Below, in pieces: positions 48,077-59,235 of a stretch of 64,000 nt of DNA (positions are counted from its first letter, which is position 1; each line of letters begins with the position of its first letter). The position numbers and the translations under genes are program-made. This DNA comes from an uncultured Gemmatimonadales bacterium (GTDB lineage Bacteria; Gemmatimonadota; Glassbacteria; GWA2-58-10). Under the pieces are notes generated by a model. It worked only from the letters and a program-made list of their open reading frames with translations. It was not told the DNA's origin and searched no databases. The stretch lies in NCBI GenBank assembly GCA_964473155.1, contig CAYYNT010000001.1, positions 6,017 through 70,016 of the forward strand, read 5' to 3'.

Positions 48077-48105
48077 TTGACAAACAACAGGTTGTTGGTT
48101 AAAAT
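48077..48105 (+). promoter_or_regulatory. Consensus sigma70-type promoter for tRNA-Met
   Basis: TTGACA (48077-48082), 17-nt spacer, TAAAAT (48100-48105). The tRNA 5' end is 12 nt downstream. Confidence 0.7.
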
Positions 48106-48117
48106 CAGTCGAAATGA

Positions 48118-48194
<77 letters not shown>

Positions 48195-48199
48195 TTTTG

Positions 48200-48258
48200 T
48201 AAAAAGGGATCTCGCCGCTTTAGTGATATAGAGCGGAAAGGTCCCTTTTGTTTTTATT
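48200..48258 (+). terminator. Rho-independent terminator after tRNA-Met
   Basis: AAAGGGAtctcgCCGCTtt...AGCGGaaaggTCCCTTT long hairpin followed by TGTTTTTATTT. Confidence 0.7.
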
Positions 48259-48483
48259 TCAGACCTGTTTATGGAAATCCGGCAGTTGTATGAAATAAAG
48301 CGGCAGGTGTGCGTTTTCGCACTCTTATTTTTGATTTTTTTAAGCACCCGTTCAAGCTTCTTCTCGATTTGCCGATATTTAATGCAGTTATGGAATTGTT
48401 CCAGAATGGTACAATTCTTGTAATAGTAAAGGCGTTTGGCAATTTCATACTCAGAACGCTATCACCTTTGGATGGTGTTGACA

Positions 48484-48816
48484 ATGGGAAAATCCAGGAT
48501 TAAAACCAGGACTTCTTATTTCGTGGTTACACCGGAGGGAAAGCTGAAAAAGCTCAACCCTCTGCTTCTGGGGACAATTCTTGTGTTCCTGCTGATCTCC
48601 GGGGTGATAGTTTCCGACCGATGCTATGTACTCAATCGGCAGCTTATTGCCGAACGGGTGGAAATCAGCTCCGGTTTGCTCAAAATGAATTCTGAACGCA
48701 GCAAACTGGGCAGCGCGCTGCAAATATGCGAAGAAAAAATGACCAAGATCAACGATCTGCTTTCTTTCGACACGGACAAGGAAAACAAGGCACAGGCAGG
48801 TAAAGCAGATGAATAA
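48484..48816 (+). CDS. Hypothetical membrane-anchored coiled-coil protein (possible EnvC/FtsX-associated partner)
   Basis: Internal start MGKSRIKTR... One TM helix (LLLGTILVFLLISGVIV) then a coiled coil. Overlaps the start of the M23 peptidase gene. Confidence 0.4.
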   Translation: MGKSRIKTRTSYFVVTPEGKLKKLNPLLLGTILVFLLISGVIVSDRCYVLNRQLIAERVEISSGLLKMNSERSKLGSALQICEEKMTKINDLLSFDTDKENKAQAGKADE

Positions 48817-49753
48817 CAAAAAGATGACATTGATGATTTTCTATCCCGATGGAGGCTCCAGAACCATCCCGTTCAATTTATCCGCTCTGTTAAAAGGTTC
48901 GGCAGCATTGATAGCTGCGTTTATTGCCGCCATTCTGATCCTGACCGGCTACAACGCCTACAGTCTCTTCTCGGTGAAAAAGCAATATGCCAGTTCCTCC
49001 GAGAGCCTCACCTCCGAAAAAAGAACCGTTTGCGAAAGGCTGAAAAAACTCGAGGATTTCGAGGAAAAGATATCTTACTATCTGGGAGGAGCGCTCACTG
49101 ATAAGGAAGGGGTCACTGTCGCCCTGGATCAGAATAATTACTCCGGCGGTCTTGGCAGTGGCGATGATACTGAATTCGACAGCGTGGGTATGGTCGAAAT
49201 TCCGCCGGCTCCGGTCATCCCGGAGAGCCAGGAGGAGGAAAAAACGGGCCTCCCGGACAGCTTCAATATCGATCTGCGCGTTGAAATGCTTCGTGACCGT
49301 CTGACTGAACTGGCTGTCCTGGCCGTCAAGGAGAAAACCCGTCTCGACCTTTCTCCTTCTATTTCACCCTCAACCGGCTATATAACGAGCTATTACGGCT
49401 GGCGCCGTTCCCCGTTCACCGGCCGCCGAGACATGCACCGCGGAATCGACATAGTCAACCGCATAGGCACTCCGGTCAAAGCCACGGCAAACGGTACAAT
49501 TTCTTTCGCCGGCAAGGAAGTTTTCTGGGGTAATGCTGTTTTTATCGAGCACAGGGACGGGATCGTATCAAAATACGGGCACATGAGTTCACTCAACGTA
49601 AAAGAGGGTGACCATGTAACCCGCGGCCAGGTGATCGGGTTCATCGGCATGACCGGCCGGACCACCGGCCCGCACGTGCATTACCAGATCGAGATCAATG
49701 GAAATCCGATCAATCCGATGCAGTTCATCATCGATGAGTCGGATATAAACTGA
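48809..49753 (+). CDS. M23 family metallopeptidase (LytM domain) with N-terminal TM and coiled coil
   Basis: 314 aa. LytM motifs HRGIDIV...G.PV.A...G and GHMS...V..G..V..G..IGF.G.TG.TTGPHVHYQI (HxxxD / HxH). Confidence 0.85.
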   Translation: MNNKKMTLMIFYPDGGSRTIPFNLSALLKGSAALIAAFIAAILILTGYNAYSLFSVKKQYASSSESLTSEKRTVCERLKKLEDFEEKISYYLGGALTDKEGVTVALDQNNYSGGLGSGDDTEFDSVGMVEIPPAPVIPESQEEEKTGLPDSFNIDLRVEMLRDRLTELAVLAVKEKTRLDLSPSISPSTGYITSYYGWRRSPFTGRRDMHRGIDIVNRIGTPVKATANGTISFAGKEVFWGNAVFIEHRDGIVSKYGHMSSLNVKEGDHVTRGQVIGFIGMTGRTTGPHVHYQIEINGNPINPMQFIIDESDIN

Positions 49754-49990: not shown

Positions 49991-51394
49991 CTACAACCCC
50001 AGCACCCGCCCGATATCGTTGGCCGTGGCGAACACCATCAGCGCCAGAACGATCACCAGCCCCACCTGGATCAGGCGCATGCGTTGCTTGGCCGAAAGCG
50101 GACGGCCGAAACGCACCGCCTCGATGGCCAGGAACAGCAGGTGACCGCCGTCCAGAACAGGGATGGGCAGAAGGTTCAACAGGCCAAGGTTTATACTCAG
50201 GATGGCGATGAAAGGCCACAATTCCCCAGCGCGCGCCGACTCTCCAGCCATCTGCCCGATTATCACCGGCCCGCCCAGGAAATCCCTGGCCTCGCGCACC
50301 GGTATCTCACGCCGTAAAAGTCCGCCGACAAGGCCGGTAAGGCTGCGCACGATATAGACCGTGGCATACGCCGTGCTGTTCACGCCGCCGGTTACGGCCT
50401 CAACCAGCGACATGTCCAGCCGCTGCCCGGGCGATGGAGGGCGGATGCCGATCAGCCCGACTTCCTTGAGGTTGTTGCCCTCTCCGGGCAGACGGCTTTT
50501 TTCCGGGGTGATCGTGAAAGTCAGCGGCTGGGCCGCGCCCTCCCGTCGGACTTCCAGGGAAAGGGCCACACCCGGACTGTTATGGATTATCCGGGTCATT
50601 TCCTGCCAACTTTGTATCGGCTTCCCGTCGATACTGATTACACGGTCCCCGCGCTGTATTCCAACCTCGGCCGCGGGTTTTCCCGGCACGGTCCCGCCGA
50701 CTTCCGGTTCGATCATGGGCTGAAGCGCCATAGCCAGTCGCGTCCGAAGTGAATCAGCCGGAGCGCTGACAGTCACCGAGTAGTTTCCGGCGCCGTTCGG
50801 GTGGACCAGATCGAACTGGATACCAGCGCCTTTCGCTTTGCCTACCGCTTCCAGTATGTCATTCCAGTTGCCGACTTCCTTGCCGTCCACCCGCGCCGCC
50901 CGGCTGTACGGCTCGATCTGTTCAAGCCCAGGCAGTGGCGGCAGGCTGGAAACCTCGGCGATGACAGTAGTACCGTAAGTCTCGGCGCCCTGGAAATACA
51001 GGATGCAGACATAAATGCAGGCCGCCAGGATCATGTTCATCAGCGGACCGGCCACAATCACAAGAAAACGAGCTGGAAGGCTTTTGCTGCTGAAACGGCG
51101 CGCCGGGTCGATCTTTATCCCGGTTTCCTCCTCAAGAGTTTGTTCATCCTCCCCGGCGCCCTCGAGCGATTCCACAGGGTCATCACCCACCATCTTCACA
51201 TACCCGCCGAACGGAATGGCCGAGAGGGCGTATTCGGTCTCACCGCGCCGGAACGCGAAAAGCGGTTTGCCCAGCCCGATTGAAAAACGGAGCACTTGCA
51301 CGCCCACAGCCTTGGCCGCCAGGAAATGCCCCAGCTCGTGGACGAAAATGCAGACCCCGAGAACGAAAACGGTGACCAATATCGTAACCAGCAT
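49991..51394 (-). CDS. rseP: RIP zinc metalloprotease RseP (site-2 protease) with PDZ domains
   Basis: 467 aa. HELGH zinc motif in TM1 (FVHELGHFLAAK). PDZ region. LDGG motif near the C-terminus. Confidence 0.9.
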   Translation of the reverse strand: MLVTILVTVFVLGVCIFVHELGHFLAAKAVGVQVLRFSIGLGKPLFAFRRGETEYALSAIPFGGYVKMVGDDPVESLEGAGEDEQTLEEETGIKIDPARRFSSKSLPARFLVIVAGPLMNMILAACIYVCILYFQGAETYGTTVIAEVSSLPPLPGLEQIEPYSRAARVDGKEVGNWNDILEAVGKAKGAGIQFDLVHPNGAGNYSVTVSAPADSLRTRLAMALQPMIEPEVGGTVPGKPAAEVGIQRGDRVISIDGKPIQSWQEMTRIIHNSPGVALSLEVRREGAAQPLTFTITPEKSRLPGEGNNLKEVGLIGIRPPSPGQRLDMSLVEAVTGGVNSTAYATVYIVRSLTGLVGGLLRREIPVREARDFLGGPVIIGQMAGESARAGELWPFIAILSINLGLLNLLPIPVLDGGHLLFLAIEAVRFGRPLSAKQRMRLIQVGLVIVLALMVFATANDIGRVLGL

Positions 51395-51512
51395 CTGATG
51401 CGCTTCCTTTCACAGTTATTATTTCCTGCAACGGGATGACATCTGCCAAAGTCAACCCGATAGACATGCTGCTATATTATACTCTTTTCAGGCTGCAAAA
51501 TCCAAGCCGGGA

Positions 51513-52670
51513 TTATTCACAGAGCCGGGCGGCATAGTCACGCGCCCAGCGATCTGTTTCCAGAATTGCCTCCAGAGAAGGATCAGCTATCGATGGCGCC
51601 GCCGCCAGGGTCTTTTCAATCAGCCGGGGGATGTCCATGAAACCTGTCTTCTCACGGCTGAAAGCCGACACGGCTGCCTCATTCGCGGCATTGAAAACCG
51701 CTGTCGCCACGCCGCCCTGCCTCCCGGCCGCGTATGCCAGATCCAGGCAGGGGAAGCACCGGGAGTCCACGCTTTCAAAAGAAAGGCTGCGCAAGGCCGC
51801 AAAATCCGGTTTCGGCAGAGGTCCGGGCTTCCGTTCCGGCCATGTCAGGGCATACTGGATGGGCATGCGCATGTCAGGCACGCCCATGTGCGCCATCACG
51901 GCGCCGTCCGCATACACGGCCATGCCGTGCACGATTGATTGCGGGTGCACCAGAACGTCGATATTGTCATACCCCAGGCCGAACAGAAAGTGCGCCTCGA
52001 TCACCTCCAGGCCCTTGTTGGCCAGGCTGGCCGAATCCACCGTTATCTTGGGTCCCATCGACCAGGTGGGGTGACGGAGAGCGTCGGCGTAGGTCTTGCG
52101 TTCCAGTTCTTCCCTGGCGCAGCCGCGGAACGGTCCGCCGCTGGCAGTGATTACGATCCGCTCCAGGGCCTTCCCGTGGGATTCCAGGAGCTGGAAAATG
52201 GCGCTGTGCTCGCTGTCCACCGGCACGATTCCGGCGCCCGGCGTCCCGGCGGCCAGCCGCATCAGGTGCATACCGGCCATGACAAGGCTTTCCTTGTTGG
52301 CCAGGGCCAGCCGTTTCCCAGCCCGCAGGGCTGAGACGGAGGGAGGAAGTCCGGCTGCCCCAACCAGAGCGTTGACAACAATATCCACCCCACTGTCCGC
52401 GGCGAGCGCCACCAGCGCCTCATCGCCGGTGCTCAGATCGAAACCTTTCAGCAATTCCCTCGGGAAACCGTCAAGCGCCCCGGGATCGGAAATGCAGATC
52501 CTTCGCGCACCGCAACCGCGGGCGGCTGCCAGCAGCCCCTCCACGTTGCGCCGCGCCGCCAGCGAGACCACCTCGAACTGCCCGGCCATGGCCTCGATCA
52601 CTTTCAGGCAGTTCACTCCTATGGAACCGGTGGCTCCCAGAATGCATACTTTTTTAGACATAATCCCCAT
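51513..52670 (-). CDS. dxr: 1-deoxy-D-xylulose 5-phosphate reductoisomerase
   Basis: 385 aa. N-terminal KVCILGATGSIG NADPH-binding motif. DXR core (LANKESLV). Confidence 0.92.
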   Translation of the reverse strand: MGIMSKKVCILGATGSIGVNCLKVIEAMAGQFEVVSLAARRNVEGLLAAARGCGARRICISDPGALDGFPRELLKGFDLSTGDEALVALAADSGVDIVVNALVGAAGLPPSVSALRAGKRLALANKESLVMAGMHLMRLAAGTPGAGIVPVDSEHSAIFQLLESHGKALERIVITASGGPFRGCAREELERKTYADALRHPTWSMGPKITVDSASLANKGLEVIEAHFLFGLGYDNIDVLVHPQSIVHGMAVYADGAVMAHMGVPDMRMPIQYALTWPERKPGPLPKPDFAALRSLSFESVDSRCFPCLDLAYAAGRQGGVATAVFNAANEAAVSAFSREKTGFMDIPRLIEKTLAAAPSIADPSLEAILETDRWARDYAARLCE

Positions 52671-52701
52671 TGCAATTAAAATATAGCGATCTTCAACGTA
52701 A

Positions 52702-53622
52702 TCACTTGCACGACTCTATAGAAGCGAACAAAGGCAGTTGCTTAGGACGCGCCTTAAGATCATGATTATGTTTTTTAATGGAGGAACAATCAAAATTGAA
52801 AATCAAGCATTCAACAACAGGATTTCGATTTTCCTCTTTGGCTCCGGAATGATAAAAATGGTCTCGTGTTACTATGTTAAACGCACTCCAGTACTTTTCT
52901 ATGGTAATGTTTTGACGAAACGTATTGTGATGCCAAGATGAAAGTACAAAACGAGCACGTGTCGGCTTTAAAGCTTCCGCCAAACGCTCCTCGTCCGCTT
53001 CAGTCCAATTATTGTAATAATCGGTGTATCTTCCCAAATAAGGCGGATCACAATAGATCATATCGTCTTCTTTAGCTGATAAAATTGACTCAACATAATC
53101 TTGACAATAAAAATCCCATTCATTTTGAATTAATCTTGCGCAACTGTCTATTTGGTTTACTATTTTTGTAACATAAGATTTAGAAAACCTTTCTGGTTTC
53201 TTGCAAAAAGGGATATTCCATTTTCCTTTCTTTGAAAATCTGATCATGCCGTTAAAGCCAGCTCGTGATAAAAATAAGAAATCCAACGGTTGATAATGTT
53301 CATTAAAACGATCTCTAATAAATCTGTAATGAGCGTATCCATTGTCATCGGCCGTCCGAAGCAATGCACCTTCACTTTCAAGATACTTACGAACAACAGA
53401 AGCAGTAATGTGACCAGATTTAATAGCTTTATAAAAAGAGATAATATGTGGATTTGAATCAGAAAACAAAGCTTTTACGGGTCTTTTGTTGAATCCCACG
53501 ACACCACTGCCCATAAAAGGCTCTATCCAACGTTCGAACGAAGAATCCGTAAGTTCTAAAATCAAAGGTACTAATTTTGTCTTGATGCCTTGACACTTTA
53601 TTGGTGGCACTATTACTCTCAT
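52702..53622 (-). CDS. D12-class (Dam family) N6-adenine DNA methyltransferase, M.EcoRV-like
   Basis: 306 aa. AT-rich. N-terminal SAM motif (IKCQGIKTKL..PFMGSG) and catalytic DPPY motif (YCDPPY). Adjacent to an EcoRV-like endonuclease gene. Confidence 0.8.
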   Translation of the reverse strand: MRVIVPPIKCQGIKTKLVPLILELTDSSFERWIEPFMGSGVVGFNKRPVKALFSDSNPHIISFYKAIKSGHITASVVRKYLESEGALLRTADDNGYAHYRFIRDRFNEHYQPLDFLFLSRAGFNGMIRFSKKGKWNIPFCKKPERFSKSYVTKIVNQIDSCARLIQNEWDFYCQDYVESILSAKEDDMIYCDPPYLGRYTDYYNNWTEADEERLAEALKPTRARFVLSSWHHNTFRQNITIEKYWSAFNIVTRDHFYHSGAKEENRNPVVECLIFNFDCSSIKKHNHDLKARPKQLPLFASIESCK

Positions 53623-53768
53623 GATTGTACCTCTTCTTCCAAATCATCTTCCCCAAGTCCCAATATATCATTCTCGTGTTCTTTCAAAACATCTCTACCG
53701 AGTTTTTTATACTCATTGTACGTCTTTATGCTTGTATAGTGTCGTTCTATTTCTAACGCTTTTGCCAT
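53619..53768 (-). CDS. Small 50-aa ORF overlapping the MTase start codon (ATGA overlap); possible regulatory peptide
   Basis: MAKALEIERHYTSIKTYNEYKKLGRDVLKEHENDILGLGEDDLEEEVQS. No HTH recognisable. Occupies the R-M intergenic position where controller genes often sit. Confidence 0.25.
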   Translation of the reverse strand: MAKALEIERHYTSIKTYNEYKKLGRDVLKEHENDILGLGEDDLEEEVQS

Positions 53769-53801
53769 GTCTGTAGTTAGATAATGCCTCCAATAATCAT
53801 C

Positions 53802-54473
53802 TTAGATTATTTCGCCTAATATGCTAAAAGGACCAGTGCCATTAATGAGGTCAGATATTTTAGTACAAGAGCCAATATTCTTAGTGTTTCCACTACCAGG
53901 ACGTCCACTTGCAATCTTATATTTAGGCTGAGAAAAGAATTTGAAGGAATGTATTACCGATGGAATTTTGGGCAAATCATCCAAGGTGTATATTGCGCGT
54001 TCGTCAATAGCTTCCGTATTCTGGGAATATATAACACCAAGAACATAGTGTCCTTTATATTCTTCATAAGGGAAACGTATATTCTTAGTACTCTTCCCGT
54101 TTCTAAAATATCCAGTAAATGCTCCGAGAGTCATACCATTTACATTATTTTCATCTATACGATATGTGCTTTTAATATCTACCGCATATTTATATCCAGT
54201 CCGTTTGTGAATAAAAGATATATCCGGATAATGATTTTGATATTGAGAAAGCACCAAATCTAAATCATTTTTAATGCTAAATTCTCTTAACATCGGAAAA
54301 AGCAAAAGCTCTAAAACCTTTGAGACAATTTTAGTATCTATTGAGATTGTATATATTCTCCTATATATATCTATAAATCCCTTAACTATCCACCGGCCCT
54401 CATCGTCAGAGACTGCTTTTGAGAATTCCTTTGTTTCATCTTGTAAAGCTGCTAAAAAATTGTCACTATTCAT
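53802..54473 (-). CDS. Type II restriction endonuclease, EcoRV family
   Basis: ATG checked at 54473 (MNSDNFLAAL...). Strong resemblance to EcoRV recalled from memory: QNHYPD, catalytic block YAVDIKSTY (D...D-I-K), TLGAFTGYFRN..KNIRFPYEEY, GSGNTKNIGS (Q-loop/R-loop region). Confidence 0.75.
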   Translation of the reverse strand: MNSDNFLAALQDETKEFSKAVSDDEGRWIVKGFIDIYRRIYTISIDTKIVSKVLELLLFPMLREFSIKNDLDLVLSQYQNHYPDISFIHKRTGYKYAVDIKSTYRIDENNVNGMTLGAFTGYFRNGKSTKNIRFPYEEYKGHYVLGVIYSQNTEAIDERAIYTLDDLPKIPSVIHSFKFFSQPKYKIASGRPGSGNTKNIGSCTKISDLINGTGPFSILGEII

Positions 54474-54498
54474 AATATATACCCTTGTTTTGTATTTC

Positions 54499-55317
54499 TC
54501 AAAACAACAGCGCCCGGTATACAAGAGCCAGCGGCACGGTGAAAAGCAGACTGTCAAAACGGTCGAGCACACCGCCATGGCCGGGAATCAGGTGCGAGGA
54601 ATCCTTGACGCCGCTGTCGCGTTTGAACGCCGACTCCACCAGGTCACCGAGAGGGGCGATTACCGCGAACAGCACTCCCAGAACCAGGGCATGACCCGCG
54701 CTCATAAGCCCCATGACTTTCATTCCCGCCGCCAGAGACATCCCTGCCGCCGCAACCAAACCGCCCGCCGCCCCCTCGACCGTCTTGCCCGGACTGAGCC
54801 TGGGAGCCAGCTTGCGCCGCCCGAACGCCCGCCCGGCCAGATAGCTGCCCACATCGACGCTCCAGGTGATAAGATAGGCCAGGAACAGCCACTGGAAACC
54901 CTGCCGTTCATCCAGGCCCGGTGCATGACGGAGCAGAAGCTGAAGCGAAAAAAGACCCCCGCTGTACAGCACTCCGAATACGCTGACCGCAACACGCACT
55001 ATTGATCCTTCGTTCGCGCGGGCCAGCGACATGGCAGCTAACAGAAGCAGGGCAAAAGGTGCGATAAGAGTCAAACAGAGGCTGTACGGGGAAGAAAGCA
55101 GCAGCCAGACAAGCAGCGGAACGGCAGCGGAAAGGCTTGCCCCGGCCTTATCAAGAGCGTCCGCATTCTTGAGGCGGGCCATTTTGAAAAATTCACCGGC
55201 AGCAAGCCAGGAACATAACGACAGGAATATTACAAGGGGCCATGAACCATAACTGCTGAGGAAATATATCAGCGGCACGCCCGCCAGGGCGACAAGACTG
55301 CGAATGAGAAAATTCAC
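54499..55317 (-). CDS. cdsA: Phosphatidate cytidylyltransferase
   Basis: 272 aa. Multi-TM. C-terminal CTP-transferase signature (SAFKRDSGVKDSSHLIPGHGGVLDRFDS). Confidence 0.9.
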   Translation of the reverse strand: MNFLIRSLVALAGVPLIYFLSSYGSWPLVIFLSLCSWLAAGEFFKMARLKNADALDKAGASLSAAVPLLVWLLLSSPYSLCLTLIAPFALLLLAAMSLARANEGSIVRVAVSVFGVLYSGGLFSLQLLLRHAPGLDERQGFQWLFLAYLITWSVDVGSYLAGRAFGRRKLAPRLSPGKTVEGAAGGLVAAAGMSLAAGMKVMGLMSAGHALVLGVLFAVIAPLGDLVESAFKRDSGVKDSSHLIPGHGGVLDRFDSLLFTVPLALVYRALLF

Positions 55318-55369
55318 CGCGCGCCCTCCGGGTCTGAAATCCTCCGGCAGCAGAACTCTTCAGCGTGTA

Positions 55370-56134
55370 TCAAAGCCTGTTCCCTCCGGACGCGCCCTTG
55401 ACCATGCCATATCGCCGTTCTCTTTTCTGGAATGCGGCTACAGCCTCGTAGAAATGTTCTTTTCTGAAATCCGGCCAGAGGACCTGAGAAATGTAAAGCT
55501 CGGTGTAAGCTATCTGCCAGAGGAGAAAATTGCTTATGCGCATCTCACCGCTGGTGCGGATCAAAAGATCGGGATCGGGCAGCCCTGAGGTGTACAGGCT
55601 GCTCGAAAACATTTCCTCATCGATTTTGTCCGGTGCAATCCGTCCTGCGGCAGCCTCGCCGCAAAGTTTTCTGGTGGCCTCGAGTATCTCCGTACGGCTG
55701 CCATAGCTGATCGCCAGGTTGAGCAGCATCCGGTTCTGGCCGGAGGTGAATTCTATCGCCTCCTGGATGGCTTTGCGGCTGGAGGACTCTATCCTCTCCC
55801 AATGTCCGATGCAACCCACACGGATTCCATTGTCTCGGAGCTGACGGCGCTCCCGGCGGATATAGTTGCGCAGAATCACCATCAGAGCTTTTATCTCGGC
55901 CTCCGGGCGCTTCCAGTTTTCCTCGCTGAAAGCGTACAGAGTCAGCACCTCAACACCCAGTTCCCGGCTGGCCTCAACCACTGCCCGCACCGATTCCATG
56001 CCCCGGCGGTGCCCGAAGACCCTGGGGCGGCCGCGCATCTGGGCCCAGCGCCCGTTGCCGTCCATGATTATAGCCACATGACGGGGGATGTTGCCGTTAT
56101 CAAGTATTTCCTGCTTCAAATCATCTTCACGCAT
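55370..56134 (-). CDS. uppS: Undecaprenyl diphosphate synthase (cis-prenyltransferase)
   Basis: Internal ATG checked at 56134 (MREDDLKQEI...). Motif HVAIIMDGNGRWA. C-terminal RxG motif region. Confidence 0.9.
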   Translation of the reverse strand: MREDDLKQEILDNGNIPRHVAIIMDGNGRWAQMRGRPRVFGHRRGMESVRAVVEASRELGVEVLTLYAFSEENWKRPEAEIKALMVILRNYIRRERRQLRDNGIRVGCIGHWERIESSSRKAIQEAIEFTSGQNRMLLNLAISYGSRTEILEATRKLCGEAAAGRIAPDKIDEEMFSSSLYTSGLPDPDLLIRTSGEMRISNFLLWQIAYTELYISQVLWPDFRKEHFYEAVAAFQKRERRYGMVKGASGGNRL

Positions 56135-56292
56135 CAGTAACCATCTGCTGTTCGGATTGCAGGCCAATATTTTGCAGTGGTAAATTAAAGACATTGACCA
56201 CGCGGGGCAATAGTAATCGCCCGGTGCGCGGATGTAAGAAACCCCGGTCCGGAGCGGACCGGGGTTTCCGAATAACTGCATTCAGACAAGGC

Positions 56293-58377: not shown

Positions 58378-59235
58378 TTACTCGCCGGCGCCACCTTCAT
58401 CGCTGCCCTTTTTCTTGCGCGGGCGCCGGCGGGGACGCCCGGGTCCGCCGCGGCGGGACTGATCGCGATCGACTTCCTCGGCATCCTCGGCCTCGGCCTT
58501 GCGTCGCATCTCTTCCTCATCCCGGCTCTTGGCGTCGGACGGTTTTTCAACTATCTGCGCCCGTCCGTCCATTACCGCATCCGAGATAGCCTGTGTGATC
58601 AGCTTGACCGAGCGGATAGCGTCATCGTTACCCGGGATCGGCACGGTTGCCAGATCCGGATCGCCGTTGGTGTCAAGCAGGGCGATCAGAGGGATGCCCA
58701 GCTTGTTGGCCTCGGCCACGGCTATCTTTTCCTTCTGTGCATCCACTATGTATATTACCGCCGGGATGTCGCTCATGGCCTTGATGCCTTCCAGGGTCTT
58801 CTTGAGCTTCACCAGTTCGCGGTCGAGCGAGAGAGCTTCTTTCTTCGTGCGAAGTTCGAAATCTCCCTCATCCTTCATCCGCTCGAGTTCGCGCAAGCGG
58901 CGTATGTTCTTCTTAATCGTCTGAAAGTTGGTCATCATGCCGCCGAGCCAGCGCTCGTTGACATAATGCATTCCGCAGCGTTCCGCTTCCTCACGGATAA
59001 CATCACGCACCTGCTTCTTTGTTCCGACAAACAGGACAGCGCCGCCCTTGCTGGCGATCTTCTCCACCCGCCCGGCGGCATCGCTAAGCTGGTCGTGGGT
59101 TTTCTTCAGGTCGATGATGTGGATCCCGTTACGCTCCGCAAAGATGAATTTCTTCATCTTGGGGTTCCAGCGACGGGTCTGGTGTCCGAAATGCACTCCC
59201 GCTTCCAGCAGGTCCTGAATGCTTGGCAAAGCCAT
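58378..59235 (-). CDS. rpsB: 30S ribosomal protein S2
   Basis: 285 aa. N-terminal LLEAGVHFGHQTRRWNPKM. Acidic/basic C-terminal extension. Confidence 0.93.
   Translation of the reverse strand: MALPSIQDLLEAGVHFGHQTRRWNPKMKKFIFAERNGIHIIDLKKTHDQLSDAAGRVEKIASKGGAVLFVGTKKQVRDVIREEAERCGMHYVNERWLGGMMTNFQTIKKNIRRLRELERMKDEGDFELRTKKEALSLDRELVKLKKTLEGIKAMSDIPAVIYIVDAQKEKIAVAEANKLGIPLIALLDTNGDPDLATVPIPGNDDAIRSVKLITQAISDAVMDGRAQIVEKPSDAKSRDEEEMRRKAEAEDAEEVDRDQSRRGGPGRPRRRPRKKKGSDEGGAGE

Follow-up and report, generated by a model that had tools for sequence, protein, structure and literature searches.

A probably decaying EcoRV-type restriction-modification cassette, with a truncated endonuclease and an intact methylase, in the cdsA-dxr spacer of an uncultured bacterium

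The window, i.e., the whole 64,000-nucleotide stretch of DNA analysed here, contains a run of host genes on the minus strand in the order rpsB, tsf, pyrH, frr, uppS (55370-56281), cdsA (54499..55317; PF01148, E=4e-61), dxr (51513..52661; three DXP reductoisomerase Pfam domains) and rseP (49991-51394). Between cdsA and dxr lies an island that carries a restriction endonuclease gene (R) followed by a methyltransferase gene (M), both on the same strand as the host genes. How did a restriction-modification (R-M) cassette come to sit among housekeeping genes, and does it still restrict DNA?

An earlier sequence-only reading had described a low-GC block of about 1.8 kb at this position, and the GC profile, the third-position GC content (GC3) and the gene order all agree with it. 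The GC content drops from 0.55-0.68 to 0.30-0.39 across approximately 52690-54500, and GC3 is 0.28-0.31 in the island genes vs 0.65-0.73 in the neighbouring host genes. While the block itself is real, its limits, first placed at 52690-54490, were adjusted to 52662..54498, where homology to relatives breaks at the cdsA stop and the dxr ATG. The foreign segment is therefore 1,837 bp long and, as the empty sites described below indicate, stands in place of the native cdsA-dxr spacer. The C-terminus of cdsA is intact, with the length and end found in relatives, and the start of dxr (MSKKV) is unchanged, homology to relatives beginning at the ATG at 52661. The gene content of the island is R and M alone; there is no linked integrase or transposase, the plus-strand ORFs of the island gave no Pfam matches, and an Rfam search found no RNA elements in or beside it.

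To find relatives with an empty site, exact-cluster look-ups of cdsA variants were combined with a Dxr protein search. The insertion had been said to split genes that are normally adjacent, and cdsA indeed adjoins dxr in every relative examined, at Dxr identities of 94, 84, 83 and 67%. In the relatives with approximately 89% identical DNA (L084-L086), homology to the window ends at 54499 and restarts at 52661, and the 89 nt that separate the two genes there are unrelated to the island. Since cdsA and dxr are adjacent in relatives at four nested distances, we regard the island as a lineage-specific gain that replaced the spacer; the relatives lack the island, and its base composition is far from uniform with its surroundings. 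A separate Dxr scan of genome contigs returned distant genomes only (at most 51% identity), which were of no help with empty sites.

The island ends carry none of the scars that the sequence-only reading had suggested looking for. No target-site duplication, terminal inverted repeats or boundary repeats were detected there, which sets the island apart from known R-M insertions, and local alignment of its flanks to the 89-nt empty-site spacer scored below the shuffle mean, i.e., no spacer remnant was found. Nor were shared cassette ends found across seven homologous loci, where the flanks are not conserved between cassettes. Two candidate repeats were discarded: an apparent flanking repeat at the homologous locus L087 was not confirmed by the repeat search, and a 12-nt perfect inverted repeat approximately 80 nt inside dxr and cdsA is native coding sequence that is present in relatives too.

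The endonuclease gene (N-terminal 223 codons and stop, 53802..54473, minus strand) was assigned by Pfam, phmmer and PADLOC (REase_II). Its product matches PF09233 (Endonuc-EcoRV) with E=1.3e-90 and 303.5 bits, against a cutoff of 25, over profile positions 2-206 of 244, and matches EcoRV PDB chains with E=3e-32 in phmmer; NCBIfam models gave no match to the R protein. It is 33% identical to R.EcoRV across EcoRV residues 10-244, and its start codon aligns with M1 of homologs. The family assignment made from the letters alone, which pointed to VDIKSTY and a GSGNT.NIGS region, is upheld. Both motifs are present, the latter as the recognition loop GSGNTKNIGS (GSGNTTNIGS in EcoRV), alongside a minor-groove loop YQNHYPD (QQNHYPD in EcoRV), and Lys occupies the EcoRV Thr186 position throughout the subfamily. 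The catalytic D/D/K residues, the misalignment of which would have spoken against the assignment, align with those of EcoRV: E55, D84, D99 and K101 correspond to EcoRV E45, D74, D90 and K92, and all four are invariant in alignments of 20 and 42 sequences. Furthermore, P0002, the intact homolog nearest to the window protein, was modelled with AlphaFold2 in place of the latter (pLDDT 73), and at E<=1e-12 the model matched EcoRV chains only, with target-normalised TM-scores of 0.73-0.81. The endonuclease thus belongs to the EcoRV family and has the EcoRV fold.

The gene that follows it (52702..53622, minus strand) encodes an intact Dam/D12-class N6-adenine DNA methyltransferase of 306 aa, as had been read from its DPPY motif. 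It matches PF02086 (MethyltransfD12; E=4e-40, 138.5 bits), TIGR00571 dam (176 bits vs a cutoff of 114.85) and PADLOC MTase_II (378 bits), and carries the motifs FMGSGVV and DPPY; a purine-rich AGAGG precedes its ATG by 7 nt. Compared with M.EcoRV of pLG13, to which it is 51% identical over 277 aa, and with the partners of three intact R genes (65-68% identical), the protein is full length. Its target is probably still GATATC or a closely related site, as judged solely from the 51% identity to M.EcoRV and the 33% identity to R.EcoRV in a subfamily that has Lys for EcoRV Thr186. Avoidance of GATATC was considered as a sign of specificity or of long residence; the site occurs 22 times in the window vs 12.3 +/- 3.8 expected, a mild excess with no avoidance, and this count is uninformative as to specificity.

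The endonuclease had previously been taken as complete, and here that reading missed a truncation. Full-length homologs are approximately 284 aa long, whereas the window endonuclease ends at residue 223 with an in-frame TAA (Y224*; 53802..53804, minus strand). The residue at this position is Tyr in all homologs of two alignments (18/18 and 42/42), and its codon is TAT or TAC in the four cassettes L087, L088, L091 and L093. A single TAY to TAA change at an invariant Tyr thus truncates the gene. The same TAA is present in four further contigs (L001, L002, L003 and L097), which come from separate assemblies of different samples made with different pipelines (JGI 3300022666, JGI 3300010357, Logan SRR6476076 and ENA ERZ795061). 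All TAA-bearing contigs belong to one near-clonal population, with 99.9-100% identical DNA.

Behind the stop, the severed C-terminal 60 codons of the gene (53619..53801, minus strand) continue in frame and, in a read-through translation, without a further stop. When the stop was replaced by X, the Pfam match gained 30 bits (333.6 vs 303.5) and reached the end of the profile, covering positions 2-244 of 244 instead of 2-206. The tail is 61% identical to homologs, aligning with their C-termini and with EcoRV up to residue 244, and, among the best 120 matches, the 119 other proteins are 274-374 aa long (282-301 in most cases), with 94-100% coverage of the read-through product. As such, the ORF of the window lacks the C-terminal subdomain, the remainder of which sits behind the TAA; the part lost corresponds to EcoRV residues ~212 to 245. 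An open and conserved tail would fit a recent mutation, and would fit continued use equally well. Codon 126 (54096..54098, minus strand) is GGG (Gly), whereas the homologs invariably have Arg there and the variant contig L097 has AGG (Arg). Highly conserved columns deviate in 3/23 cases downstream of the stop vs 5/118 upstream, a difference that is not significant (Fisher p=0.12). R126G and the deviations in the tail may be signs of further decay, the signal of relaxed constraint being weak.

The account that we consider probable is that of a decaying EcoRV-type R-M cassette, recently gained, in which the nuclease has been truncated and the methylase is intact. A two-gene cassette, R then M with a 4-nt overlap, would have come from a low-GC donor and been acquired recently by one lineage, the nearest named relatives of the host being Candidatus Glassbacteria; it would have inserted precisely between cdsA and dxr, taking the place of the spacer. 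The change at Tyr224 would then have cut the endonuclease to 223 of approximately 284 residues at the cost of the C-terminal subdomain, leaving the catalytic core and recognition loop in a product that, by analogy with EcoRV, would have very little or no ability to bind and cut DNA. With the methylase intact, the locus would be heading towards a solitary methylase, and the cassette probably now works only as a DNA methylase. Although R and M are adjacent, the nonsense mutation in R means that the pair lacks the two intact genes of a functional type II R-M system.

Some residual nuclease activity is conceivable, since the 223 N-terminal codons are open and all catalytic and recognition residues are kept. 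We think it unlikely, if less so than any other alternative, that attenuated restriction persists in the truncated endonuclease, alone or in trans with a 49-aa C-terminal peptide, as a low-toxicity R-M system in an essential operon. In such a scheme translation would restart at the conserved Met236 codon to give the peptide, and would be coupled there to methylase synthesis. In its favour, the 223-aa core retains E55, D84, D99 and K101 together with the recognition loop, both pieces are still open reading frames, and the allele is found in all five assemblies. There is also a structural precedent in an EcoRV deletion mutant crystallised on its GATATC site (PDB 2ge5), likewise an EcoRV-family core without the C-terminal subdomain (219 residues vs 223 here). 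That mutant is, however, an engineered laboratory protein, whereas the window truncation is natural; the latter also starts a few residues earlier (EcoRV-equivalent 212-214) and removes more, and the subfamily has a tail approximately 35 residues longer. For the deletion mutant, Hiller and Perona reportedly found in 2006 a loss of binding and cleavage. Further points tell against attenuated restriction: the split is confined to one near-clonal population and is hence not a conserved design, R126G alters an invariant Arg, the peptide is without a good ribosome-binding site, and GATATC is not avoided. In addition, a review (PMC4081073) describes the C-terminal subdomain of EcoRV as important for DNA binding, bending and cleavage.

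A stronger form of the same idea, that the nonsense mutation is an adaptation which created a naturally split EcoRV-type nuclease, with a 49-aa clamp peptide coupled to the methylase or made by rare read-through, seems to us quite improbable. If true, restriction would be throttled and tied to methylase synthesis, and a promoterless R-M system could be tolerable in a strongly expressed essential operon.

Returning to the favoured account of decay, the small ORF downstream of the stop needs explanation, as it had been read as a 50-codon gene that overlaps the methylase start by ATGA and suggests translational coupling or control. The overlap exists, the TGA of the ORF overlapping the methylase ATG, and the ORF has 49 codons (53619-53768, minus strand); the idea of a separate gene is not upheld, as the ORF is an in-frame part of the R tail behind the TAA, beginning at the conserved internal Met236 codon. 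It is thus the orphaned C-terminal tail of the R gene. Likewise, the ATGA (53619..53622, minus strand) is the ordinary junction between R stop and M start of this subfamily, and the same junction occurs in intact cassettes: a 4-nt overlap (ATGA or GTGA) joins intact R genes of 283-292 aa to M in L087-L093 and L099.

A complete and working EcoRV-type system in which the small ORF is a separate gene that couples or controls methylase translation is, given these observations, very hard to sustain. In its favour, the two genes lie side by side on one strand and R keeps all its catalytic residues, while the small ORF has an ATG as well as the overlap with M and was annotated as a gene by gene callers in L003 and L097. 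Against this, the ORF shares the reading frame of R, its product is homologous to the C-terminal end of EcoRV and of all full-length homologs, and a separate small gene occurs in none of the intact cassettes. A single GGAGG precedes its ATG, at a distance of 18 nt that is too great for a typical ribosome-binding site. Searched by itself, the ORF had no Pfam, NCBIfam or PADLOC match and no helix-turn-helix (HTH), whereas E. coli EcoRV is in fact controlled by an HTH protein of 99 aa; no gene for such a small HTH controller (C-protein) was found beside R in the island, the sole small ORF being the R tail.

The comparison with known systems places the cassette more closely. Systems of the pLG13 / pLG74 type share with it the Pfam family and fold of R, the aligned catalytic E, D, D and K, the GSGNTxNIGS loop and a probable GATATC target. 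The sequence-only reading was right that the window genes are co-oriented with the operon, unlike those of the E. coli EcoRV plasmid: in pLG13, M is divergent from the C-protein gene and R, the former lying upstream of R and overlapping it, whereas the window cassette is without a C gene and has R then M on the same strand with the 4-nt overlap. Intact R proteins of the window's subfamily also differ from EcoRV in their length of approximately 284 aa, a longer acidic C-terminal tail and the Lys for Thr186. The subfamily, which includes a cassette on Rhodothermus marinus pRMAR01 and metagenomic homologs from Verrucomicrobiae, Brocadiae and Gallionella, is alike in gene order and overlap, with R 62-73% and M 65-68% identical to those of the window. 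Its cassettes lie in unrelated genomic contexts and have a GC content below that of their surroundings. In contrast to the window copy with its Y224* and R126G, R is uninterrupted in these cassettes (282-292 aa).

The two remaining alternatives are barely credible. That the stop arose as an error of sequencing or assembly, or is carried by a minority only, while the real gene is intact, could be argued from the metagenomic origin of the assemblies and the approximately 2x coverage of L097, but the TAA is in the window and four separately assembled contigs from different samples and pipelines, and the change is a substitution rather than a homopolymer indel. Read-through or recoding of the TAA, with the help of a suppressor tRNA or a changed genetic code, to give full-length enzyme at a low, regulated level could draw on the fully open and conserved downstream frame, but dxr, frr and rpsB of the host end in TAA, the window tRNAs are tRNA-Asp and tRNA-Met only, no homolog has a stop at the Tyr224 position, and a TAA with G as the next base terminates translation efficiently in bacteria.

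How, then, is the surviving methylase expressed? The cassette has just 25 nt ahead of R and 40 nt after M, a convincing promoter of its own was not found, and a terminator-like site is absent at both island ends. Given the short upstream stretch and the absence of terminator-like sites, read-through transcription is plausible. The island is most likely transcribed from the rpsB-tsf-pyrH-frr-uppS-cdsA operon, and dxr and rseP would in turn be transcribed through the island. The most likely overall state is thus a crippled endonuclease beside an intact methylase that persists via this read-through. The earlier proposal that dxr and rseP expression is hostage to the mobile element is weakened, since a crippled nuclease would pose little or no post-segregational threat.

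R-M systems that insert into operon-like clusters or take the place of a genomic region are known, as are orphan methylases left over when R-M systems degrade, and many solitary methylases adjoin degraded R genes (PMC3424554). No new mechanism is revealed here, this being an ordinary decaying defence cassette, and what is new is the site, the cdsA-dxr spacer of a housekeeping cluster for translation and isoprenoid synthesis, and the candidate-phylum host. The locus nevertheless provides a clean instance of both processes, with an empty site for comparison. It illustrates how, in an uncultured candidate-phylum bacterium, the spacer between two genes of an essential operon (translation factors, then uppS-cdsA-dxr-rseP) can give way to a minimal R-M cassette without a promoter. 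The cassette seems to have been caught just after the knock-out of its nuclease, with the methylase left behind. There is also a caution for annotation pipelines, which call the R tail a separate hypothetical protein and R intact, both wrong in this case.

All genes in this part of the window lie on the minus strand, running from rpsB (58378-59235) through tsf, pyrH and frr, in that order, to uppS (55370-56281), cdsA (54499-55317), dxr (51513-52661) and rseP (49991-51394). Between cdsA and dxr, over about 52690-54500, GC falls from 0.55-0.68 to 0.30-0.39. This block holds two real genes, an endonuclease gene (R) and an adenine methylase gene (M), with GC3 of 0.28 and 0.31 respectively, compared with 0.65-0.73 in eight neighbouring host genes. 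R (53802-54473, minus) matches Pfam Endonuc-EcoRV (E=1.3e-90), the EcoRV chains in the PDB (E=3e-32) and PADLOC REase_II; M (52702-53622, minus) matches MethyltransfD12 (E=4e-40), TIGR00571 dam (176 bits, cutoff 114.85) and PADLOC MTase_II (378 bits). These matches, the shared strand and relatives in which cdsA adjoins dxr bear out the sequence-only reading of the low-GC block as a restriction-modification (R-M) system with an EcoRV-family endonuclease, inserted in the operon and co-oriented with it. A 258-codon ORF overlapping the end of cdsA was rejected as an artefact of ORF calling; the alignment with homologs begins at the Met at 54473. The listed uppS ORF has 303 codons, against 254-279 in close relatives, and its start is probably placed too far upstream, an ORF-calling artefact and no feature.

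The same reading had also proposed a 50-codon ORF as a coupling or control gene, which did not hold. This ORF (53619-53768, minus, 49 codons) shares the frame of R and, judged by alignment, is the severed tail of the R gene. Translation of 53619-54473 in a single frame gives 223 residues, one TAA (53802-53804) and then 60 stop-free codons, the frame ending in a TGA that overlaps the M ATG. When the stop is read as X, the Pfam match extends from positions 2-206 to 2-244 of the 244 in the profile and the bit score goes from 303.5 to 333.6. Searching a database with the 284-residue read-through product yielded 4,619 homologs. The best 120 of these, the window's own 223-aa protein aside, are 274-374 aa long (282-301 in most cases) and align over 94-100% of the query. 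Two successive alignments, of 18 and 42 homologs, show Tyr at the stop position in every sequence; the DDYW...Y motif that follows and the Met with which the small ORF starts vary little or not at all. The codon there is TAT or TAC in four homologous loci, therefore one transversion made the TAA. The alignment of the read-through product with R.EcoRV of pLG13 extends to EcoRV residue 244, and the premature stop falls at about residue 212-214; the truncated R keeps E55, D84, D99, K101 and the GSGNTKNIGS loop. Deviations of the window at highly conserved columns number 3/23 downstream of the stop and 5/118 upstream, no more than a trend (Fisher p=0.12).

From its recurrence in separate assemblies, we conclude that the premature stop is genuine. 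Contigs JGI 3300022666, Logan SRR6476076 and JGI 3300010357, assembled separately from other samples, encode an identical 223-aa product and share the DNA on either side of it; over 2.4-10.3 kb their identity to the window is 99.96-100%. A low-coverage contig (L097, ENA ERZ795061) also has the stop and differs from the window at 2 of 1,913 nt. Agreement of five assemblies on the TAA makes an assembly artefact unlikely. Read-through or recoding is likewise unlikely: the host's own dxr, frr and rpsB end in TAA, so a code change is no explanation, TAA-G is an efficient terminator, and none of the aligned homologs has a stop at that position. Codon 126 (54096-54098) is GGG (Gly) in the window and the other contigs and AGG (Arg) in L097, where R lies at 183-854. 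Arg is invariant here in the 42 homologs, so the main allele has lost a second conserved residue. That the truncated L097 variant keeps Arg126 suggests that the nonsense mutation came first and that further decay is under way.

M is intact with all motifs in place; it shares 51% identity with M.EcoRV and 65-68% with the methylases that accompany intact R genes. An AGAGG purine-rich stretch lies 7 nt before its ATG and would act as its ribosome-binding site, so that M need not depend on translation of R. The intact cassettes compared (Logan L087-L090, Verrucomicrobiae MAG L091, JGI L093 and L099, the Rhodothermus marinus plasmid pRMAR01) encode an R of 283-292 aa and then an M of 295-322 aa on the same strand. 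All have a 4-nt overlap of R stop and M start (ATGA or GTGA); the ATGA in the window, once taken as a sign of coupling, is therefore the ordinary R/M junction, inherited from an intact gene pair. No controller gene was found in any compared cassette of this R-then-M subfamily. This differs, as the sequence-only reading had said of the arrangement, from the E. coli pLG13 EcoRV system, in which the gene for a 99-aa HTH controller overlaps R and M is divergently oriented. In the Verrucomicrobiae MAG (GCA_019634625.1; L091 1297-5504) the cassette adjoins phage-integrase-like, BsuBI/PstI-type endonuclease and Eco57I-like genes, a defence-island setting, whereas the insertion in the window is bare.

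The truncated R would lack the equivalent of the EcoRV C-terminal subdomain. Deleting this part of EcoRV, as Hiller and Perona did in 2006, reportedly weakens binding several orders of magnitude and slows the chemical step about 100-fold. Compared with that engineered deletion (PDB 2ge5), the truncation in the window removes slightly more, from a longer tail. Because this subdomain is missing and M is intact, we would expect little or no restriction, with the locus now reduced to a solitary adenine methylase that probably targets GATATC. Such a predicted state agrees with the proposed origin of many orphan methylases by degradation of R-M systems (PMC3424554). GATATC occurs 22 times in the whole 64-kb window against 12.3 ± 3.8 expected from shuffles (at least 22 in 2 of 100 shuffles); the avoidance expected under long-term EcoRV-type restriction was thus not found in the window, which has a mild excess instead. 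This is compatible with little or no restriction, without proving it. Some residual or split-enzyme nuclease activity may persist, as both reading frames are still open, but only one near-clonal population has the split and mutation has already reached another conserved residue, and we regard a naturally split or throttled EcoRV-type nuclease as very improbable.

Three contigs without the island (L084-L086), with flanks about 89% identical to the window in DNA and a 94% identical Dxr, have cdsA, an 89-nt spacer and then dxr; their homology to the window ends at the cdsA stop (54499) and restarts at the dxr ATG (52661). The two genes are also adjacent, in the same wider synteny, in L094, L095 and L096 (Candidatus Glassbacteria), in which Dxr identity is 84%, 83% and 67% and the spacer 119, 114 and 6 nt respectively. 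Absence from relatives together with unameliorated GC3 points to one recent acquisition, a lineage-specific gain rather than repeated loss. An ancestral cassette later lost in relatives is unlikely, as the cassette is missing at four nested distances and its GC3 differs from that of host genes by about 0.4. The island's AT-rich flanks, 25 nt before R and 40 nt after M, resemble the native spacer no more than expected by chance. Direct repeats, proposed earlier as a check on the insertion, were not found at the island ends, nor were inverted repeats; the island has no integrase, and no flank is conserved between homologous cassettes. A perfect 12-nt inverted repeat, CCCGGCCATGGC / GCCATGGCCGGG (52581-52592 and 54574-54585), brackets the island, its two copies lying some 80 nt within dxr and cdsA. 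It is probably coincidental native coding sequence, because one or other copy also occurs in island-free relatives.

Since the cassette has just 25 nt ahead of R, and neither end showed a terminator-like site, its transcription probably comes from the host operon and continues through it into dxr and rseP. Sigma-70-like matches in 51300-55500 number 12 against 5.3 expected, mostly in the AT-rich insert, under a consensus that may not be that of the host phylum. One of the 12, TTGATT-17-CATAAT at 52765-52793 (minus), precedes the dxr start by about 100 nt; dxr and rseP could have gained a new promoter from the insert. The earlier idea that these genes are hostage to the element is weakened: transcriptional dependence on the insert is plausible, but a nuclease-dead cassette exerts no post-segregational killing. 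The host and insertion site are new, and the enzyme family, the stage of R-M decay and the type of insertion event are known; the locus makes a neat textbook case, with empty sites as controls, and brings no new mechanism.

A second, milder low-GC stretch (0.39-0.46, within 48100-48900) contains a tRNA-Met (CAT) gene (48118-48194, plus), with a DivIC-like gene on one side and a 126-aa ORF / M23 peptidase pair on the other. This region looks native, since the order of the flanking protein genes is unchanged in L094 and L096.
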